This document shows, one piece after another, positions 6,417 through 47,744 of a stretch of 64,000 nucleotides of DNA (position 1 is its first letter; the number at the start of each line of letters is the position of its first letter). Source of the DNA: Callorhinchus milii (lineage: Eukaryota); contig NW_024704742.1 of assembly GCF_018977255.1 (NCBI RefSeq), forward strand, positions 33,048,001 to 33,112,000, given 5' to 3'. The position numbers and the translations under genes were made by a program. The notes under the pieces were generated by a model that saw only the letters and a program-made list of their open reading frames with translations, did no database searches and was not told the DNA's origin.

Positions 6417-7039
6417 AGAACCAACCTGGGTGATGATTCTCTGACTTGTTTTTCATTCCTTTGAAAAACACATGGCTTTCTCTCACTGCCGTTGTGGAGA
6501 CCCTGTAAGTGTTAAAGAATCTCTTGTAGAAGATAGAGAAGTGAAACTACATTCAGTCTTTGCCAAAGGGCTGCAATTAGCACTCCTGTAGTTGATGAAT
6601 ACAATATGCATTTGTGGTCATTCGCCTCCAAATATGCAGTCACTTCCCTTTACAATATATCCTGTGAAGCGCTTTGAGACGACTTCCTGACACGAAAGCC
6701 ACTGTATAAAATGTAAGGATTATAATTATTATTATATTAACAAGGTCACTCGGCTCACATTGTTAGCAATTCTGCAGCCAAGTGTCAGAGGGCCATTATA
6801 ATCATTTAGAATTGCACACCATCTGTATTACTTATTTTAACATAAAATCTATTAACCAAAACCATTCAGCCCATCAAAACCGTTTATTTCACAGACCATG
6901 ATGCATCTACCGTACTATAAATTCCATCTCACCCATTCCTGGGGAAAACTTTAAGAATCCTCAAAAATAATCAAGCAAAGATCCAGATAATTCATCCATC
7001 CCATGTCTCCACTATTCAGCCTTGGCTTGCTGCCCACCA

Positions 7040-7303
7040 ATGTCTGCCTGTTTAAAGATCGCATAGCACTACTCAAAATGAGGAGGGAGTTTCTCTCGAT
7101 GTCTTTCGCCTGGTGTCCTCGGGTAAAAATAAAGTGGGCATTTACTTTATTGGCTGTCTTGGTGGGAAACTGATGTGCACAGATGGGCTGCTGTATTCGC
7201 CTACAAATATACAGTCACTGCACTTTACAATAAATCATATGAAGCGCTTTGAGACGTCCACCTGACCTGAAAAGTGCTATGCCAAATGCAAGGGTTATTT
7301 TTA
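7040..7303 (+). mobile_element. Deu-domain SINE, 3' half
   Basis: GTCTGCCTGTTT...AAAGATC...GGGAGTTTCTC followed by the shared tail. Confidence 0.7.
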
Positions 7304-8037
7304 TCCCAGCCCCTGGCCCTGCTCCCTGTGTGGAACTGAAACGGGCGAAAGGTTACAGTCCTACCTACTGACACTGGTGGAATGCTGTGATCTTGAAGAG
7401 AATAAAAAAATCTTCTGAATCTGAGTGCTTTTCGGGCACGATGTACATTTTGTTTCTCTGCCTGCAGTTTCCACTATTGGGATCCCTCTTTGTTCTTTTT
7501 AAGATATAATGTCCTCCAATTTGAAATGTAAATGCTGCAATATATGGCGTACCACTGGCGGAGGACAATCCCCATGGCAGTGGTGCCTTGCCAGCAAATA
7601 AATAGCCCCTGACAGCAAAATGTCATTGTAATATACATTTGCAGTGGAAGACGGTAAAATAGCACATTATCCATCTCGACTAAAAATACATGTTTGCGTC
7701 AGTATCGAGATATGAGCAAAGCAGCTAAGCACACAGACCTACAGGAATGGGGGAAAGATTTTCTGACGCTCGAGATTGTAAAATAACACATTAACCCCCA
7801 CATCTCTTTTACCAAAAAAAATGATAATTTGATTTGCACCAGTATTGAGACAAGAGCAACACAGCTAAGCGCACAGATTTACTGGAATTGGGAGGATGGG
7901 GGGGTGGGGTGGGGGGTAAGTTTCCTGTGTTTATTTACATCTGAACAGGGTTCTAACGCTTGGGGTTTTTCGTTTTAAATGTATTTTGAGATGCAATGTC
8001 TAAGAAAAAAAAACAAGGCTGGGCTTTGCTGGGTGCT

Positions 8038-8045
8038 TGACGTCA
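8038..8045. promoter_or_regulatory. Palindromic CRE (TGACGTCA)
   Basis: Exact CREB/ATF consensus about 970 nt upstream of the ATG. Confidence 0.6.
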
Positions 8046-8129
8046 GTGGCCAAGCTCCTTCCCCCCCCCACCCCCACACCCCATCCCCACACCCCCTCCC
8101 CCAGTGGTAAGCTGGTTTGGGGGAGGGTT

Positions 8130-8139
8130 TATCGCGAGA
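8130..8139. promoter_or_regulatory. CGCG element / BANP-type motif (TATCGCGAGA)
   Basis: Fits TMTCGCGANR, a motif typical of CpG-island promoters close to the TSS. Confidence 0.55.
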
Positions 8140-8377
8140 TGTGCAGAGACACAGGAGCTGGGGCTTTCAGTATCTCATTTCCCTGTTAGTGGAAAGGCTG
8201 AGGAGTGAGTTAGTGAGTGAGTGAGTCGGTCACACACAGTCAGGCTGTTGCTTTACACCAGAGGAAGAGGGACACACACCAACCACAAGAGGACAGAGAC
8301 TGAGAGCAGGACAGGACAGGCACAGGGTCACACTCACACACACACACCACACACATTGCTTGCATTGCTGGAGAGAG

Positions 8378-8402
8378 CAGCAGCAGCAACAGCAGCAGCA
8401 GC
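8378..8402 (+). repeat. (CAG)n microsatellite with one CAA interruption
   Basis: cagcagcagcaacagcagcagcagc. Confidence 0.9.
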
Positions 8403-8497
8403 TTCAGATCTGCTGTGGTGTTGCTCAGGGGTTGGATTGACTGGTTGAGACGAGAGGGGGGAATCGTTTTCAGGCTGTCACACAACCTGCAGTGAGG

Positions 8498-8615
8498 ACA
8501 CACACAGACACACACACAGAGACACACACACACACACAGTCTCACACACACACACAGACAGAGACACAGTCACACACACACACACACACACATAGACACA
8601 TACACGGTCACACAC
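8498..8615 (+). repeat. Interrupted (CA)n microsatellite
   Basis: CA runs broken by GA/GT. Confidence 0.9.
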
Positions 8616-8971
8616 GGATTGACTGACTGGGGACAAGGAGCACAGCCAGACGACCCCCACCCCCCACCACCCCCCTCCTCCCCACCCCACCACCTCCCCC
8701 CCCCCCCCCAGCACTGTCCAGCTCTGCCCATTGCACACACACACACTCACACCTGTAGTGAGAGAGAGAGGGAGGGAGGGGGGGGGGGGGGGGGGGTGTG
8801 GAGAGAAGACAGTATAATAGCAGACACGGTGCTGCTGCTGCTGCAGCCCCACAGCCGAGCATTGCCCGAGGTGCCCGGGGCGGCTGCCGTGCACCAGCGA
8901 GCGGGGCAGTGGCTGAGCTCCCGAGTCGGTGCTGTGCTCAGAGCGAGGAAGGCGAGAGCGAGGAGGAGGAG

Positions 8972-9002
8972 GGCGGCGGCGGCGGCGGCAGCGGCGGCAG
9001 CG
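8972..9002 (+). repeat. (GGC)n tract abutting the start codon
   Basis: ggcggcggcggcggcggcagcggcggcagcg, then accaccATG. Confidence 0.9.
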
Positions 9003-9008
9003 ACCACC

Positions 9009-9070
9009 ATGGCTTCCACCACCTGCACCAGGTTCACTGACGAGTATCAGCTCTTCGAGGAACTCGGAAA
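9009..9070 (+). CDS. CAMK2D: CaMKII delta, coding exon 1 (MASTTCTRFTDEYQLFEELG + AA of Lys)
   Basis: ATG at 9009 in strong Kozak context (ACCACCATGG). Translation matches the CaMKII N-terminus. Phase-2 donor AA|GTACGG at 9071. MAST..., LFEELGK and the exon-2 RRCMKI are delta-type residues, unlike gamma or beta. Confidence 0.95.
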
Positions 9071-9167
9071 GTACGGCTACAAAGTGGCAGCACCTCTGAG
9101 CTGAGTGACATGGGCTGTGTTTGATGTGTCAGTCCAACAACATGTTGCAATGTGTTTGATTTCCTTA

Positions 9168-9488
9168 ACCCCCCCTCAACCCCAACCCCTCAACCCCCCC
9201 AACCCCTCACCCCCCCAACCCCTCACCCCCCTCAACCCCCCCACCCCAACCCCTCAACCCCCTCAACCCTCACCCCCCTCAACCCCCCCAACCCCTCAAC
9301 CCCACCCCTCAACCCCCCAACCCCTCACCCCCCCCCCCTCACCCCCCCCAACCCCTCACCCCCCCAACCCCTCACCCCCCAACCCTCACCCCCCCTCAAC
9401 CCCCCCAACCCCTCAACCCCAACCCCTCAACCCCAACCCCTCAAACCCCAACCCCTCAACCCCAACCCCTCAAACCCCAACCCCCAAC
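9168..9488 (+). repeat. C-rich minisatellite (ACCCCTCA/ACCCCCCA/ACCCCA variants)
   Basis: About 320 nt made only of C, A and T, built from 6-9 nt units. Confidence 0.9.
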
Positions 9489-9644
9489 TGAATGAAAGCT
9501 TCTGCTCAACTGGCACTGAGAGCCGGGGATCCCAGCAGCTGCCATGGTCTGTGTGTGTGTGTGTGTCTGTGTGACTGAGTGTTTGTTTGTGTCTCCCTTT
9601 TCCATGTATTTAACACAACAACAAGTCAGGGATACATTTCATCA

Positions 9645-9783
9645 TAATAATAATAATAATAATAATCATCATCAGAATGATCCTCGCGTTCGACACCGCG
9701 CCTGATCAAGTCCTCCGGACATCTCGAGCGCTTCGCCGGATGCACCGTCAAGTGAATTTGACCGCGTCGGTTTGTGGGCGAAA
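9645..9783 (-). mobile_element. SINE 3' tail fragment, strongly GC-shifted
   Basis: An (AAT)n tail plus about 104 nt that align collinearly to the SINE tail at 48495-48595 and 33203-33305. Confidence 0.8.
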
Positions 9784-10257
9784 TTTAACGCCCGCTCCCG
9801 GGGGGGGGGGTGGGGGGGCGTCCGATCCTGCAAACTGCCCGGTCAAGTTTACGTATTGATTTGCAAGTACAGTTCGCGCGTTGTTGCCGATTTTTGTTTG
9901 GCTGCCGGAGTGTATTGTGTTGTAAACATGGGTTTTCTTTAATCACGGTATCCTATGAAATCCAGTCCTTGTGATTTTTTTGGGGGGGCGGGCGGCGGGC
10001 GGGGGGGTTGACTCTCTTTGTTGTTAGTGAGGCTGTTTTAATGTTTGGAAAATGTGTTTTGAATATTAACCGAGCACCCCTGCTACCACCATCACTGCAC
10101 GAGCAAATAGCTTGGTTGTCCGTCAGTTGGACCTAAGCAGCATTGTAATTTATTAGGATCTTAAGTTACCCAACTCTGGACAGGTTTTTTGCTCTGAGAC
10201 GACTTCCAATTGCCAGTTGTTGTTGTTGATTTGAGCGTATTGTTGCGTTGCTTTCAG

Positions 10258-10352
10258 GGGAGCATTCTCGGTGGTGAGGAGGTGCATGAAGATCTCGACA
10301 GGTCAGGAATATGCTGCCAAAATCATCAACACCAAGAAACTGTCTGCCAGGG
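10258..10352 (+). CDS. CAMK2D: CaMKII delta, coding exon 2 ([32 protein letters not shown] + G of Asp)
   Basis: Acceptor ctttcAG at 10256-10257 and donor G|GTGGGT at 10353. The 95-nt exon is phase-compatible with exon 1, completes the GKGAFS glycine loop and carries the YAAK catalytic lysine. Confidence 0.96.
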
Positions 10353-12645
10353 GTGGGTATATGTTTTTTTTCTCTCTCTCCCAAACAGTTTTTTTATATA
10401 CAAAAAAAATTGCCTTCACCTTACTAATTTGTGCTAGATTGGTGGGTAAATAAATTCAGTAAATACCAGTTTAAGTTGTTCATCGTGTTGTAAATTGCTG
10501 CAATCTCAAGACTTTCAACACTTCAAGATGAGCTTTAGGAAGAACGGTGGGCAATGTGTTATACAATACTCGCTGAATCAAACCAACTTTGGTTTCAGGG
10601 GCTGTGGCAGCAAAAATAAGTAAATAGGCAGTGAGAATGCAGGATTATCGGTGAATTCTTTGAAGCAAGTTGTTCTTTGTAACAAGATTTGGAACTAGTT
10701 GAAGCTTGCATGCTCATGTTTACTGTGTATGTGATTGGGGAATATCACAAAAAATGTGTGAACACCCTTTTGGGCCTATGTGTTGCACCCAGTGCAGTGG
10801 AATCCGTTTAATTTAAGCACTTAACTTTGTAATAGCACAGCCGCCCATTGTTGTGAAGCGGCATGGAGTTGTCATTGATGTGCAAGGCAAATTGTATGCA
10901 TGAATCTTCATGTGTCATAAATGTTTCTGTGACACTATGTTCTGAAATTGGCATGTGAAAACTAGCCGATTATGTTTTAACATGAGTTTTCATGGATAGA
11001 ATTTTTATGTTTCACAGTTTTCTCCCTTTGCTTGCTCTTGTCAACCTGGCTTTTCCAACTGGGAGGGTAGGACATGCTGGAACTACCCACCCAGTCAGTT
11101 TGATTAGTGCAGGAAATGAAGTGCAAAAGAACGTAATGTTTCAGAGGCTCAGCAGATGCTGCTCAAGATCCCTCAGTCAGGACAGAAGGATATAAATGCC
11201 TTTTCAAAGCTTACCACTTCAATTTCAACTTGGCTGTCCAAGAGTGATTCAGTCGTCTTGGTTTTGGACTGCGAGAGTTATTGAAAAATGTTAGAATATG
11301 CCTTATAATGTTTCTTTAATATAATATTTGGCAAATACGGAATTGGATTTTATTGTGGAACTCATTTTAAATTGGTGGCCTCCTGATTTACCACCTTGAT
11401 ATTTCTGAACAATAACAAAACAACACAATTACATTTGTATAACTCCTTTCACATTAGGAGGATGTCTTGAGACGGGTCTTGAAGGAGGCAAGGGATGGGG
11501 CGAATCAAAACCTGGATTTTCACTGATCCCTGGCTTTAAGGACTCACTGCTGTTGAAGTGGGCAGGCGGGAGCCAAGTTTCAATGATGATATAAGCTCTT
11601 TTATCCTTAGAAACCTTGAGCTGTATTCACAATTAGACTAATTACCATTTATAGGGCAGTGTTGTTTCTAGGTCTGTGTTAATAGGTTTGCATCCTGTTG
11701 TATGTTGCTTTATTTGACTATGAACAATGCACTTCTAGAAAAGACCTTTATTTCAATATATAAAAAGACATTTTCGTAGTATTTTGTATAGTACAGATAG
11801 CACATTTTAAGAGTTTCTCATCCTATTTTTCGGGTTCATTTGAGTTGCTTGATATGAAGGAGCAAACAATCTTGCATTCCGAGTGTGACAATTATTCTTT
11901 AAGTTTTATTTTTAAACTTGCGTTAGATCATGATCTGTGTGACATAATTGAATAATTAATGTTAGCCATTTTGCTGCATTAATTGATGGACTTAACACCC
12001 AAACAGTAGTTCTATTTATTGCATATCATTCCATTCAGTGTATTATCTTCTCGGGCCATTTAATGAAGCACATTTAGAATAAATAACAGTTTTGCCCAAT
12101 GCTAAGATGCCCTGTTGGTTTGGACTTTGCCTTGTAGGTTAGAAGTTTATATGAGCCAGACAATTGGCAACCATGAACAATCCCATATAAAAAAAATTGC
12201 ACCTACCTGAATTTAGAGCCACCTGAGTTGAAACCCAAAACGTTGTGGTTGCTCAGTGATCTTAGTTGCGCAGGGTGTTTACAGTAGGAATGAAAAGTTG
12301 TATTTATTCTATCTTTATCTAAAGCACAGGTCTATAAGCCAGCTAATGAGATGATTTAGACCAGTCATCAGCAAAGCATAGACTTCCTCCCTTAAATTAA
12401 TAATTGGTTGGTCTTACTGCTGCAGCATAATAGTGCATACTAAATTCATTAAAATTGTTGAGCGCCAATACTGGGCGAAGGTTTCAAATTACTGAGAAGC
12501 ATGCCCCAGAATGAGATATTCAAGTAGCTCTTGTAGTTTGAACAGTAATAAAAAATTCATCATATGTTTTGAGCATGTCTATTCAGACTAAATGTTTGTT
12601 GTGTGAATTTTTGAGTAGCTTTGTGTTCATGAATGTCTGTCGCCA

Positions 12646-24565: not shown

Positions 24566-24889
24566 ATAATAATAATAATAATCCTTGCATTTGATATAAC
24601 GCTTTTCACGTCGGGAGGACGTCCCAAAGCGCTTCACAGAACACACTGTAAAGTGAATTGACTGTATATTTGTGGGCGAACGCGGCAGCCAATTGCGCAC
24701 AGCAATGTCCCACAAACAGTCGTAGATTGAAAATGACCAATTTATTATTGTTTTTTGGTTTTGGAGGGATTATTATTAGGCTCTGTGTGGAGTAAGGAAA
24801 CTTGCCCAAGGTTTCGCCCTCTGCCTGGAATTGAACTCAGGTCTCTCGCTTGCAAAGCGAGTGCTCTAACCACTGAGCTACAGGACTCC
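24566..24889 (-). mobile_element. SINE family A, short form, full head
   Basis: The minus strand starts GGAGTCCTGTAGCTCAGTGGTTAGAGCACTCGCTTTGCAAGCGAGAGACCTGAGTTCAATTCC (A box, TGC anticodon arm, B box), then CCTTGGGCAAG (CORE-like), an L2-type tail and (TTA)n. Confidence 0.9.
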
Positions 24890-26560: not shown

Positions 26561-27499
26561 GGTAGTCTGAACAAATACTGCATTAAAGTTGACATTCTCA
26601 GAATGCTATATAATTTTTTTTAGAACAATTTACAGCTTCAGGCATTCAGACTACCAGTTACGAGGGACTAAACTCTCACAGTGCTAAATTTCTCATTAAC
26701 TTTTGCATTATTTCTAAGCCTGAAGAGCCATTATATCATTCCTTTTTTTAATCCTTTGTGTATTGAATGTCCTTTACCAGTTCTAATTTTNATATTCTAT
26801 AAGTCGTTTTGAATTGAAATGTACAAAACCATTAGTATTAAAAACATCATAGTTTCTAAGTGTAAAGTCACTTCAGTGCAGACTAAGGTTAACAATTATT
26901 TACCAATTTTGAGCTTTTCAACTCTCGACTTGAGTATGAGGTTATCCTTTGACAAACTCTGAATTGCCTGCCCTATGTCCTCACATTGTTAAAACGAACA
27001 TTGCTCTTGTATGTATACAAGTAGCAAATGGAGTATTAATGCCCTTGAGCACTCCAGTAAAAATGCCAATTTGGAATAACATCTAAACGAACTCATTGTC
27101 ATCTCAACAAAGAATGGGATGTTTGGCGCTGTTTGTAATATTGTAATGAGATGGCTACAATGGGGTATGTTTCTGTGATGCGTCTCATGTTTTTAAACTT
27201 TAAACCAGGATTGTTGAACCCAGATACATACTGAGCCACATGTGTGGCTTGTTTATCATCGACAGGGCTTTGAAATAATATTACAGAGGTGTACACTGTC
27301 CAGTATCCAGCGCCTTGGGATGTCCTCCCGACGTGAAAGGCGCTATACAAATGTAATCTTGTTGTTGTTGATTGTAATAGGGCAGTATGAATAATATTTC
27401 ACTATCTCAATGTCCTTTGTCTGTAGTAGACTAAATGATGTGCAGTTTATATTTATTGGCTTTGAGATGTGTCCGATGTAGCTAGATTGATGAAGCAAT

Positions 27500-30338: not shown

Positions 30339-32384
30339 GAAGGTTGAGGTGAGAGGAGAAACAGTGGAAGAGGATAGAGTGGTCAATGGTATCGAACAGT
30401 ATAAGCACCAGCAAAGGTTCCACAAATAACAGAGTTGTCAAGGATCATCATAATAATAATAGCACTTGATACAGCATCTTATCACATCTTCGAGATGTCT
30501 CAAAGTACTTCACAGAATACTGTAAAGTGAATTGACTGTATTTTGTGGACGAAACTAAGTATTGGTTATGCACTGTGCTTAGCCTTGCAACTTTTCATTC
30601 TGAAGGGAACTTTTGGATTGTTTTCAATTGAGTCAGCTACAATGACTAAACCAGTTATGCCACTTTTTGGGGTAAAATTTACAAGATCCTGGATTTTCCC
30701 TTTAAAAGAAATCGCAAGTTCACTTCACTCTTTAAGTTGGACCAGGCTTACAAAGCAGTCTGCACTTTTTAATTGATTCTCCAGAAGGAGTTGTTTGTTC
30801 AAGACTTGGGCATTGTGCCAAACCAGGGAGAGATTTTAAACCGCCAAAGTCACTGAAATCTTTTGCTGCAGTGACGTTTGTTAATCTGCTCATGCAGTCT
30901 CTAGAATGGTGACGCCAATAATTTTTTATAAACTGCTAAATTTATTGCTCTTTCTCTAATGCAAAGGTCAGACTACAACTAAGACTTGGTATGTTCGCAC
31001 CCTAAATATAAAGATAAGCCTTTAGGACTGAATGTCAAAAGCATGATCTAGGCCTCATGTGCATTAAGACAGCCTTTTGTTAGTTAAATGGGCTCAGTAG
31101 AGTACATTGTGTTTATGCTCTCCTGAATGCACCTTATCTTAAAAATTGTGCCAGCAGCATTGTGTTCCATAGTGAATGTTTATCCATTCATTGACCGCAA
31201 TGGTTGTGTATAGCTTTGTACTCTCACGATTTGAAAGATAGAACTGGGAATTTGTTTACAAAGCCTGGTCGTGTTGAAATGCCTCCAAGTGATTCAGTGG
31301 TAATTACTGCCAAGTAGTGAATTTTTGTAGGCCAATGCAATAGCCATCTGTTCCAGCAACGTCCACAAAAACAGCCATGAAGGACCAATTAATCTGAAGA
31401 ATTGTTGGCCAGGATGAATGCTCCTGTGATTAGCAGGATCTTTTAACATCCGCCTGAAAAAGCAGATGGGACCTTGGTTTAACCCCCTTTCTGAGAGACA
31501 GTCTCTCTGTTAATGCAGGCTTTGATTGACAGCCGAGTCCCTCTCCCTCCCAACTTTCAAAGCCTGCCTCAAGATTTACCTCTTTGACTGACTTTTGGTC
31601 ATCTTCACCCCATCCACACCTGATCCTCCTCAGGTACCCAACCAACTGTGAGCTTTGAGATGTCCTCCAGATACAAAAGGCGGTACATAAATGTAAATTG
31701 TATAATGAATTCTGCGAACTGATATATAGGGCTTGAATTTTCTGACTCAAAGGTGAGGGTTACTACCAACGAAGTCATGCTGACACTGCGAATTGTGTTA
31801 CATGTTAGAAACTGAGTACATTTTGTATTTATGCTAATATTAAGAGGGTTTGTCTTATTCTAGTTTTACGGAAATCTGAGCTATTTTCATTAAAACGTGC
31901 CCTCAAACTCAGGACATCTTCAACAACAACAACTTGCACTCATATAGCGCCCTCCACGCAGGGTAGCGTCTCAGAGTGCTTGGCGGAGCCTGTCTCCGAA
32001 GCAGGTGGGAGGTGGCCGTAAGCATGGTCGAAGAGGAGGACAGACCAACTTCAGAATTCAGTAAAGTTTCTTTTTCCCAGAAAACCTCTGAAATCTGCCT
32101 GTGTTCTAGATTTGAGTAAATGTGGTAGTCTCAATGTCTATGCATTGAGTCTTAACTGTGACAATTTTGTAAACCTTGCTGATTTGTAAAATTGCAAGAA
32201 TTTCAAAATGTGTATGACTGATTCACACAAAATCCTGCAGTTCCCTTTGTGGTTTTACTTCCCTTTTTATCTTCAGCACATTTCACAGAAAAGTGTTTTT
32301 TTTCACAGAGAAATTAAATGTAAATTTATTGTAGCTGGGTTATTCTCAAACTAGTATGAGACTGCTGCCAACTTGAGCACATTG

Positions 32385-35630: not shown

Positions 35631-37696
35631 TAATGGAAAGAATTTCTGGAAGGGGAATAATTATTCTGTTACTTTCTAAAACTACTTAAGTTGTATGGAT
35701 GTGCTGTGCATTGAGCTACAAGACACAATCACTACAGTTCAGAGTATATGCTGTGAAGCACTTTTTGATCTTCCTGACATCAAAGATGTGATATCAAATG
35801 CAAAGACTATTATTTACTATAATGTTGCTGCATTTATTTTGTTGAGTAACTTACAGTCAATTTGCAAACACAATGTCCCACTACCAGCCGTGAAGTGAAT
35901 GACTAATGTTATCTTGGGGATTAATGGCAGGATATTGGGAGAAATGTCTATTCAATTAGTGCATGAGATTTTCAATGCCCCCCTGAAAAGGCTCATGGGA
36001 TCTTGGTTTGACATTGGTTTGAAAGAAGGAACATGAGGCTATTTAGAAGAAAAGGGTAAAGTTTATATAAAAAAAAGTTCCATGCATTAGTCAACTTGTT
36101 TTGAAACACTGCAAAATTTGGTTCAAAATTACCCTTCTCACATTTCCCATGTCAGAAGCAATGTTGAAATAAATCCAGAAAAAACTGTTGTTTCCTTTTC
36201 TTGTGGAGTTGCATTGGTTCTGCTAAATTTCAGAAATCAGATTGATACATAGTAACAATGGAACTGAATGTATTTGTTTTCTCATTTCTTCCACAAAATA
36301 CAGAGTCAATCCACTTTACACTGTATCCTGTGAAGCGCTTTAAGTTGTCTCGACAACATGTATCACAACCAAGGATTATTATTAAATTTGTCTTAAGATA
36401 CATTCCTAACTACCAACTATAAGAGTAATGAGTAATTTCACCCTTGGTTTCAGTAGGTGCTCCTATTTCAAGAATAAAGACTGTGGTTGTCTATTAGTTT
36501 AACTATTTACTGCCTCTCCAGATGGTGGTTGAATGGATATGCAGTAACCTCACAGGTAACCTGTGTGTGCATTCTTTACTTGTATACACATCAGCTGCTG
36601 CTGCCATTTCAAATTTGCAAATGCCAATCTGAAATGAATTATGCCACTGAAGTTGTTCATCTGACTCAAGTCTTATAGCTGTCATTGTTCTTCTTGCCCC
36701 TTTGGGGGTGTCAATTTTGCTTAGCACTCTGACCTCTAGGTTAAATGGCTGTGGAGTCAAGCCACAAGTCAAGACTTCATAGCCTTATGAAAGAGAATGA
36801 ACTTCATTGAAATGGCTCAAAGCGCTTCACAAATGATCGCTGTCAAGAGCAATGACTTTTATTTAATAATAAAAAAATACATTTTATATAGCATCTTTTG
36901 TGTTGAGAGGAAGTCTCAAAGGGCTTCACATGATTTATAAATATAATAATAATAATTTACTGTAAATTGTAGCGACTATGTATTTTGTAAGCAATGTGCA
37001 GCCTTTTGCCTGTAAAAATTGGTTTCTGAAAATTGCAGTAGTAGCTACCCATTTATTATTGTTGGTTTGTTATTGCTCAATCTGCAGGCTTTACATGGCA
37101 ATACTGCATTATTTCAGTGCCATCTGGATCATTTTGTCCAAGAACAAATCACATATTTAATTATTTATTCAGATTTGATAGGCCTTGTAACTACTTCTAG
37201 GAATCTTTTCAAATCCCGAGGCAATCATTATGTACAGAGCCATGAGCTTCTACAGTAACTATTTTTAATGTTTGAGTTCAATCTCCAGGAGTCTTTGTGA
37301 AGCTAAATGATACCTGGCTTTTTTGTGGATGAAGTTCTTTGCCTCCCTCTTATTATGGAAGTGTATTGGCATGTTTTCAGTCTGTAAGGTTCGTGGAGCA
37401 GAAAGATCCTGATTGGAAGACTTCACTGTGTGGACACATTAATGTAGTCACAGCAAGTATATGTTACGAGGTTGTTCTGTTTTCTGGAGTGGGAAATTCA
37501 AAGATGCATTTACTTTTGCTTTTGGTTGGGAGACGGCAGGGTTTACAGGAAATCCTCCTAATTTCCTTACCTCACTGGGTCTACTCCACTTCAGACTAGG
37601 GATTTACCTCCTCTCAAACTGGTTGCTTGGAACTGTTGCATGTCATTTGCCTCTTTTGCACCTTGACATCCTCTTGGACTGATGTGTCAGTGCCAA

Positions 37697-45842: not shown

Positions 45843-47744
45843 GAGAGTCGATTAGGTGAACTACGAGATGTGTAGAAACAATAGAACAGGTTCTACTGTA
45901 TTTCTGTATTCAATGAGCTATGATAATCATCCTTGCATTTGATATGGCACTTTATCACGTTGTCACAACATCTGAAAGTGCCTCACAGGATTTAATGCAG
46001 AGTGTAGTGACTGTGCACTTGTAGGCAAATAAAAGGAACTGGTTTAAAAACAAATCGGTGAACCTAGAGTGTGATACAACTGACGTCAGCTTTTGTCCAC
46101 AAAATACACATTCAGTATACTTGACAGGATAGGGCAGGAGGCCGCAGACCTCCAATGGACCAGAGGCCTCCTGCATTACGTCATGCTGGTCCAACCTCTG
46201 CTGAGCGCCTGCTCCTGTCGCAGGATAGGGTAGGAGGCCTCTAGGATGCAAGATGGCATCTAAAAGGACGAGTTATCTGATCAATTCATTATTGAACTGC
46301 TTACAAGAATTTCTAGAATTCAACCATTTACTTGTTCAATGGAGTGATGAATAAAACGTCCCTTAATAACATTTTACAAGGGAAGCAGCCGGGATATTGG
46401 TAACTTAAGTGGTAGTGACAAGTTAACCAGGGTCGAGTTATCAGGGGTTCATGTATTTCTTTTAGGACTTACCATAGAAGTCTAAAGCAACCTTAGCAGG
46501 CTGTAGGTGTACTCTATCCTCATCTCTCACGTGGCTTGTACCACATATTTTTAATATAAAAACAAGTTGGAATTTTAATTTGCTTCTAATCAAACATTAT
46601 TTGCATCTATGTTTTCTTTAACCTTGAAATAACTTGCATTTATGACGCTTGCTCTTCTTGGCCTGCTCACATTTGTTGCTAACAATTTACCACAACAGAA
46701 GTGGTTATTTCATTGTGTTGAGTGTCAGGTGATGAACTTAGTAGCCTGTTTTTTTTAATCCAATTGCAAAGAGGTAGTTCAAGAACTACTACCTCTTTGA
46801 CTGCACATCTGGTCATCTTTCCCCTGCCACTCCCAGCTCGGGTGCCACGCCAGTATTGTTAAGCGCGTTGGGATATCCTCCCGATGTGAAGGACGCTTAA
46901 CATAGGTGAAGGTTGCTTAAATAGAAAATTGTATTGTATTTGATTGATAAATGCTTGGTTTATACAATCATTTTATACTCTTTGTAAAGCATATAACCTT
47001 GTTAATAGATATTCCTTGTTAGCTTACTTTGCAATAATTTCCCCGTTTGTGAAAAGAAAAAGTAACAGGATCCAGATGGATGTTGAGTGTAGACGTCTGG
47101 GGAAGGTGTTGGCGATTGGTGGAATGCCGTTCGCAGTAGCTTAATTGACAGGATGTGGGCACAGTCCCTTTCGATCCCTATCTGTGTGTATGGTAGCCTT
47201 GTGGTATTGTTACATTTCGCAAGAACATCACAGCATTGCTGTTCCAAGACTTTGTACAAGCAACATCTAATCATGTAATTACTGTTTAAACTAAGTACTA
47301 CATTGTTGTAGAATGATAAATTATTGATTCTGTTTGGTTCACTTCAATAACTGCTATCAGATTATTGGTTTTACACAGCACTGTCTGCAATATAGAATTA
47401 TTGATCATTCAATTTGGCACCAAATGGCTCTTTATACAGTGTACAGATTTTAATTTTATATACAATGTCCTGGTGTCTGTAAGATGACAGATGGATTTGG
47501 GAAGATTGACAAGCAGGGAATTGGGGTAGTCAAGCTTAGATGTAATAAGTGCATGGATGAGGGGTCCGGCAGCCTGAGGGGAGAAGCAGTGGCAGAGCCG
47601 GGTGATGTTGCAGAGGTTGGGGAAGACAGTGCGGGTCATGTCACGAATGTGGGGAAGAAAGGACAGTTGAGCATTGAACTAGATGACAATTTTTCAGCCT
47701 GGCTCAGGTGACTGGCCTGGCAATGGAATGACAGAATCGAGCCA

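Follow-up and report, generated by a model that had tools for sequence, protein, structure and literature searches.

A short SINE tail in the first intron of a CaMKII-delta-like gene has been shifted strongly towards G and C: its GC content is about 59%, against about 40% in the consensus of its family, and about a third of its A/T bases have been replaced. A fixation bias towards G/C is needed to account for this pattern, and GC-biased gene conversion (gBGC) offers the best fit to it. Dogs, birds and GC-rich isochores provide earlier cases of the phenomenon, and the copy described here is a clean single-locus instance of it, not a new mechanism; the locus is of value as a clear illustration and a practical marker. 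With a starting sequence that is securely known, the repeat copy amounts to a natural experiment, in that the force keeping this patch GC- and CpG-rich has been active since the insertion, and on a sequence that had no prior function. Throughout, the window means the whole stretch of DNA that was analysed, 64,000 nucleotides long. It is taken from contig C1 (33,048,001-33,112,000) of a genome of 991.5 Mb, in which five contigs are of macrochromosome size (139, 126, 99, 81 and 69 Mb) and the sizes of the others reach down to about 4 Mb.

The SINE tail and its surroundings

The focal element (Table 1) genuinely derives from the 3' tail of a tRNA-headed SINE, of which it is a copy in reverse orientation. 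Read along the plus strand, members of the family show (AAT)n and then ATCCTTGCATTTGATATAGCGCC..., which corresponds to the reverse complement of a SINE with a 3' (ATT)n tail, and full-length copies have, on the minus strand, a terminal head that resembles tRNA-Ala (for example at 24816-24886). The sequence quoted in the initial annotation was found at 9680-9783 with its preceding (AAT)n tail, and it aligns collinearly to the SINE tail over 104 columns; the other copies share this layout, with (AAT)n standing directly before ATCC, and in the focal one 13 degenerate bases follow the (AAT)7. A profile built from nine window copies (nhmmer) matched 9680-9786 (E=5.4e-8, 27.3 bits), the part of the profile that aligned being positions 1-106. 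When 9670-9800 was used as a query against the whole genome, 39 further matches were obtained at 75-84% identity, with E down to 6.9e-17, among the 40 scored of 195 candidates. The initial annotation was right that this tail recurs in the window, while its figure of about ten copies has to be revised: 32 matches are found by the profile, and 25 of them, the focal copy included, cover the tail.

The tRNA-derived head is absent from the focal copy, a short form of about 104 bases, which makes it a truncated member of the family. Many other copies are of this form, stopping at ...GGGCGAAAT and continuing into unrelated DNA, and the focal copy does likewise; examples in the window lie at 45929-46029, 30462-30559 and 36283-36376. 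Either truncation tends to occur at this one 5' point, or the short form is a mini-element of its own. No convincing direct repeat that could be a target-site duplication was seen by eye between the sequence left of 9640 and that right of 9785. The degenerate units between the pure simple repeat and the element would, if they were once AAT, add about five further changes towards G/C, a figure that depends on an unsafe microsatellite alignment. The sole N in the window stands at 26791.

An artefact, be it a chance alignment of GC-rich unique DNA or an error of assembly or base calling, is hardly credible as the origin of the pattern. The profile score is modest, and the element is covered by a contig of one run only among four, but the match is significant, collinear over all 104 columns and placed right after the (AAT)n tail, and the BLAST comparison with other copies reaches the low E values given above. 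Moreover, the short-read contig from this run (X1; 1,246 bases) matches 9683-10100 except for two single bases, one of which (9721, A>G) restores a consensus CpG; the other is at 9874 (T>C), and both are likely polymorphisms. Assembly or base-calling error, which the initial annotation had named as something that might undo its reading, is therefore not supported, since a contig reproduces the shifted sequence. Runs X2-X4 left 9560-9825 uncovered, with contigs only from 9826 onward, after the G run, and speak neither way on the element.

Exon 2 of the gene finds its best solved-structure matches in CaMKII delta (50.3 bits), followed by alpha/beta (45.3 bits) and gamma (39.5 bits), and the N-terminus encoded by exon 1 is presumably that of a delta-type CaMKII. 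The focal copy lies antisense in intron 1, about 600 bases downstream of the start codon. It had been assigned to a "CAMK2D CpG island"; the CaMKII-delta-like gene is upheld, while the single island has to be replaced by two CpG-rich patches, with the copy in the second of them, inside intron 1. The observed/expected ratio of CpGs (CpG o/e) is 1.71 in the first 200-base half of this second patch (9601-9800) and 1.03 in the other, and it is 0-0.36 in the 600 bases that separate the two patches. The non-repeat DNA of the window has a GC content of 0.41 and a CpG o/e of 0.33. The stretch 9821-10257 occurs once in the genome, so that no consensus is available for polarising changes in the remainder of the patch. 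An Rfam search of 8000-10400 returned nothing within the element.

Two further observations concern the 5' region of the gene. A long poly-C and a long poly-G face each other at 8650-8800, and the pair (8667-8819) gave miRNA-like Rfam matches below threshold (24-34 bits, for cut-offs of 64-95), probably an effect of composition. Near the beginning of the GC-rich 5' region, about 970 bases upstream of the start codon, TGACGTCA occurs at 8038-8045; we take it to be a cAMP-response-element-like palindrome.

Table 1. Features of the window around the GC-shifted SINE copy.
Feature	Position	Strand	Evidence or remark
Next upstream SINE copy	6621-6720	minus	Ordinary; W→S 8, S→W 6
Nearest upstream SINE copy	7126-7295	minus	Ordinary; W→S 8, S→W 7; bounds the shifted zone
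CpG-rich patch just upstream of the start codon	8801-9000		GC 0.70, CpG o/e 0.85, 20 CpGs
CaMKII-delta-like exon 1, coding part	9010-9071	plus	Start codon at 9010; 20 residues, then a split Lys codon; donor GT at 9072
CaMKII-delta-like intron 1, 1,186 bases	9072-10257	plus	Splice sites read; carries the low-complexity C-rich stretch, the SINE copy and two runs of G
C-rich low-complexity repeat, CCCCTCAA-like, about 325 bases	9165-9490		Almost CpG-free despite GC of about 0.7; separates the patches
Second CpG-rich patch	9601-10000		31 CpGs (15 from the SINE copy); GC 0.47-0.53
SINE simple-repeat tail, (ATT)7, on the plus strand (AAT)7	9646-9666	minus	Read directly from the sequence
Degenerate tail units CAT CAT CAG AAT G	9667-9679	minus	Between the pure repeat and the element; compared with other tails
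GC-shifted SINE 3' tail copy, 5'-truncated short form	9680-9784	minus	Profile match, alignment, change counts
CaMKII-delta-like exon 2	10258-10353	plus	31 residues; solved-structure matches

Direction of the changes and gain of CpGs

Changes were counted on the 104 aligned columns, with consensus position 96 taken as G, the state of 95 of the first 100 listed genome copies (hand count). The AT-type 17-base tail start occurs 107,759 times in exact form in the genome, so that the family consensus can safely stand for the sequence as it was inserted. Compared with this consensus, the focal copy shows 22 changes from A/T to G/C (W→S; 9 T>C, 8 A>G, 3 A>C and 2 T>G), two in the opposite direction (S→W; C>A at 9709 and G>A at 9721), one S↔S change (G to C) and no W↔W change. 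Because the X1 contig has G at 9721, one of the two S→W changes reflects either polymorphism or variation between individuals. How columns 84-92 are aligned could shift the count by about two, owing to a single inserted base. The hand count of the initial annotation, about 20 W→S, one S→W and one G→C, was close to this recount, and the comparison with a family consensus that it had proposed yields 22:2 with an ancestor backed by the AT-type copies.

The 24 other tail-covering copies of the window, taken together, carry 127 W→S, 176 S→W, 72 W↔W and 29 S↔S changes. The difference from the focal copy is pronounced both for W→S relative to S→W (22:2 versus 127:176; Fisher's exact test, P=1.5e-6) and for W→S relative to the sum of W↔W and S↔S (22:1 versus 127:101; P=7.8e-5). 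Per site, W→S changes amount to 0.355 in the focal copy and 0.091 in the other window copies, S→W changes to 0.049 and 0.195, respectively, and the classes that gBGC leaves unaffected to one change in 103 sites as against about 4.4%. With 22 W→S changes and only one in the unaffected classes, neither age nor unmethylation alone is sufficient, and a bias towards G/C is needed. The shift is also local, as the copies 2.4-3 kb upstream are ordinary (8:7 and 8:6).

Two candidates were considered and rejected. Old age of the copy disagrees with the single W↔W or S↔S change when about 4.4% of sites have changed in this way in the window copies, and RNA editing of one strand before insertion disagrees with the balance of T>C and A>G (9:8). 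The footprint expected of gBGC is symmetric by strand and includes transitions as well as transversions, as do the four types of W→S change seen here; the presence of both strands and of both types of change fits a fixation bias and not one-strand editing.

A local mutational bias, arising from a process tied to transcription start, replication initiation or break repair and involving no fixation bias, would account for the raised W→S rate, and the copy is some 600 bases away from the start codon; PMC13712754 deals with a peak of mutations at transcription start sites in humans. Such a process should, however, raise S→W, W↔W and S↔S changes too, whereas there are three of these in total against about 12 expected from window rates, and the 9:8 ratio of T>C to A>G leaves no transcription-strand asymmetry. 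We consider this explanation improbable.

Some of the changed sites are variable across the family. Sites 17, 61, 65 and 87 have a G/C state in 32, 18, 12 and 17, respectively, of the first 100 listed copies (hand counts), shares that may be high because these copies come from the first 3-6 Mb of contig C1, an end region. The same four sites vary among short-form copies in AT-rich flanks. Four or five of the 22 changed sites may have been inherited, and a conservative count of changes after insertion would be 17-18 W→S against two S→W.

The gain in CpGs is larger than a random distribution of the changes would bring about. The initial annotation had spoken of many new CpGs, and the total does rise from six in the consensus to 15 in the focal copy, with three kept, three lost and 12 new. 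Random placement of the same changes would give 5.9 new CpGs (P=0.0008), and a second estimate gives 11 observed against 5.5 expected (P=0.0025). As read from the change list, 14 of the 22 W→S changes participate in new CpGs and eight create none. When the CpG-creating changes are set aside, eight W→S changes are left (five without the possible subfamily sites) versus no non-CpG S→W change, a weaker signal.

The CpG gain was also compared among other copies. The loci fetched from the rest of the genome had been picked by their likeness to the focal copy, so that their central copies are biased, and the bystander copies in these loci were separated out. The ratio of observed to expected new CpGs is 1.57 in the selected shifted copies of GC-rich loci (W→S of at least 15), 1.28 in bystander copies with at least 10 W→S changes, and 0.73 in the window copies, in AT-rich DNA. 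The roughly twofold excess of CpG-creating changes in the focal copy goes beyond what plain gBGC predicts, and a force or repair bias favouring CpG may contribute. Part of the excess would consist of new CpGs that survive where the DNA is unmethylated, and methylation state clearly matters; the remainder may come from mutation context effects, selection on CpG density or CpG-directed mismatch repair, which one locus cannot separate.

These figures bear on a further explanation, in which an unmethylated island is maintained without recombination: CpGs would not decay, and a CpG-favouring force would fix the changes that create them. Candidates for this force would be selection acting on CpG density or on binding sites in a promoter-proximal island, and T:G mismatch repair directed at CpGs outside meiosis. 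The excess of new CpGs (11-12 versus 5.5-5.9), the participation of 14 of the 22 W→S changes, the CpG o/e of 1.71 around the copy and the depletion of new CpGs in AT-rich context, which indicates that methylation state matters, all agree with it, and passages of a study of dog CpG islands (PMC4350167) describe non-methylation and gBGC acting together. Unmethylation, however, only stops CpG decay; it produces neither a four-fold rise in W→S changes nor a loss of non-CpG S→W and W↔W changes. Eight W→S changes create no CpG at all, and the shift extends over GC-rich chromosome ends and microchromosomes, where selection on a single island is implausible. This makes the explanation an unlikely one.

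Shifted copies elsewhere in the genome

The focal copy could instead have inherited its composition, either from a rare GC-rich source or subfamily or through ectopic overwriting by a copy that was already GC-shifted. The focal GC-type 17-mer, ATCCTCGCGTTCGACAC, is found in exact form in 16 other copies (17 with the focal one), and there are 192 matches with at most one mismatch; the variability of sites 17, 61, 65 and 87 and an otherwise ordinary copy that has the GC-type block away from any island (locus L091, below) point the same way. Against this stand the 107,759 copies with the AT form, the clustering of GC-type copies by place where dispersal would be expected, and the fact that bystander copies of both forms shift with the GC content of their flanks. 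No near-identical donor for ectopic conversion was found among the scored matches, the best other copy being 80-84% identical. The focal variant CTGATCAAGTC occurs in 56 copies, and the GC-type upstream block is missing from each of the 55 besides the focal one. Similarly, 58 of the first 100 listed of the 1,628 GACACAG (ACAC-type) copies keep the AT-type states at all of sites 6, 9 and 12 (hand count), and TCA, the product expected from decay of an ancestral CpG, is present in one of these 100. Inheritance is thus very improbable. A GC-rich subfamily as such, or CTGATCAAGTC as the marker of one, was rejected on the ratio of 17 to 107,759 copies and on the linkage of AT-type states to the variants. 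The initial annotation had regarded a multi-copy GC-rich subfamily as fatal to its view; this was tested and none was found, GC-type copies being placed in a non-dispersed manner and bystanders tracking flank GC.

The baseline for the genome-wide comparison consists of the 24 window copies, the bystander copies and 15 kb of contig C27. In the fetched GC-rich loci, 41 bystander copies carry 425 W→S and 146 S→W changes, counts that have to be read with the bias that heavily shifted old copies in GC-rich DNA drop below detection. Their bias correlates with how GC-rich the non-repeat flanks are (Spearman 0.68, P=1.2e-6; 0.69 with the window copies added, n=65), and long and short forms alike are shifted with flank GC. 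In three 5-kb stretches of C27 (5.3 Mb), taken at round coordinates, W→S exceeds S→W in 14 of 14 tail copies (148:25 when pooled). The C27 pieces (L048-L050; G000:C27:4300001-4405000) have a non-repeat GC content of 0.45-0.51 and a CpG o/e of 0.53-0.58.

Copies resembling the focal one are concentrated towards contig ends and on small contigs. Within 3.2 Mb of an end lie 27 of the 35 placed similarity matches (21% expected, P=3e-12) and 60 of the 96 listed placed non-focal 17-mer copies, out of 192 matches overall (21% expected, P=5e-18). Of the 24 non-focal copies on the five macrochromosomes, 23 are within 6.3 Mb of an end. In vertebrates, the ends of chromosomes and the microchromosomes are as a rule places of high recombination, and a GC shift in just these places is consistent with gBGC. 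The same GC-enriching process is at work across entire GC-rich regions, both towards chromosome ends and on small chromosomes.

The setting of the focal copy is another one, 33 Mb away from the end of C1 (139.2 Mb), the largest chromosome, and two further island-local cases were encountered. At L033 (G000:C10:11791368-11794384; 11.79 Mb, mid-chromosome), a SINE tail with 19 W→S changes and one S→W change is associated with an island at locus positions 151-1800, where GC is 0.51-0.79 with 7-23 CpGs per 150 bases before dropping to 0.28-0.41. L032 (C7, 7.45 Mb) is a GC patch of 600 bases with ordinary copies within 1 kb. A counter-example is L091 (G000:C5:28540501-28543600; 28.54 Mb), in which a copy starting at locus position 1545 has the GC-type first 17 bases with one mismatch, while its remainder, with 12 W→S and six S→W changes, is ordinary, and no island surrounds it. 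A GC-type block can therefore arise without an island, possibly, in L091, as a short ectopic conversion tract.

A candidate mechanism and related systems

We propose that a short, AT-rich copy of the SINE tail inserted antisense into intron 1 of the CaMKII-delta-like gene, and that a fixation bias favouring G/C has since raised it from about 40% to about 59% GC, W→S changes gathering several times faster than in other copies and S→W changes being nearly blocked. The agent would most likely be GC-biased gene conversion at a recurrent site of meiotic recombination in the promoter-proximal, CpG-rich patch. That the focal copy was rewritten by gBGC at such a recurrent site, in a patch that is probably unmethylated, is an explanation to which we give somewhat better than an even chance. 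We infer recombination as the cause, the unmethylated state of the patch and the long life of the site from the pattern of changes, and the "hotspot" that is "extending the island", in the words of the initial annotation, would likewise be a reading of that pattern, as would recombination independent of PRDM9. The direction and locality of the changes and the need for a G/C fixation bias support in part its attribution of the pattern to gBGC; the twofold excess of CpG-creating changes is missed by gBGC in its plain form. A rough scaling of W→S changes to the unaffected classes at this one locus would suggest a population-scaled bias B of about 4-17.

If gBGC is the cause, the locus would mark a long-lived recombination site, and the abundant SINE family could be used to map such sites and the strength of the bias genome-wide without population data. 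A bolder generalisation, which we hold to be possible though doubtful, is that interior promoter-proximal CpG patches are old and stable recombination sites with B of about 4-17, able to rewrite a 40%-GC repeat to about 59%, and that CpG-creating alleles are favoured there beyond other W→S alleles, as expected from CpG-directed T:G mismatch repair, with the SINE as a hotspot recorder. Were this true, more than 100,000 SINE copies would form a genome-wide record of the positions and strengths of past hotspots.

The PRDM9 domains KRAB and SSXRD (Pfam) gave no matches at E<=0.01 in the genome, in an exon-by-exon search for short domains that was run without a positive control. In the passages drawn on here, Berglund et al. 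(2015; PMC4350167) report that dog CpG islands gained substitutions through gBGC after the loss of PRDM9 and that unmethylated DNA attracts recombination. The locus resembles those islands in that W→S changes are concentrated in CpG-rich, presumably unmethylated DNA near genes, so that GC-rich DNA grows, and in the interaction of non-methylation with a G/C fixation bias; it differs in being a single locus polarised by a repeat consensus rather than by outgroups. Where recombination is not directed by PRDM9, promoter-like features are targeted, and parts of several reports describe stable hotspots at promoters and CpG islands in birds, canids, some fish and snakes (PMC5519329, 10.1101/023101, PMC10369914). 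The setting proposed here is of the same kind, although putative: a promoter-like feature and a lasting recombination site, with time for compositional change.

Interspersed repeats are shifted W→S in GC-rich, highly recombining regions, in what is termed isochore-type evolution, as in studies of human Alu elements. The SINE copies likewise act as reporters of a known ancestor, with a bias that scales with local GC, chromosome ends and small chromosomes. Unlike such a regional shift, that of the focal copy is found 33 Mb inside a 139-Mb chromosome, in AT-rich surroundings, and is confined to an island of less than 2 kb.

CpG islands can also be maintained by hypomethylation alone, that is, by a regime of low deamination. 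The patch resembles such islands in its high CpG o/e and in the three of six consensus CpGs kept in the focal copy. It differs from them in that 12 of the CpGs of the copy are new, not retained, and in that non-CpG W→S changes are in excess as well.
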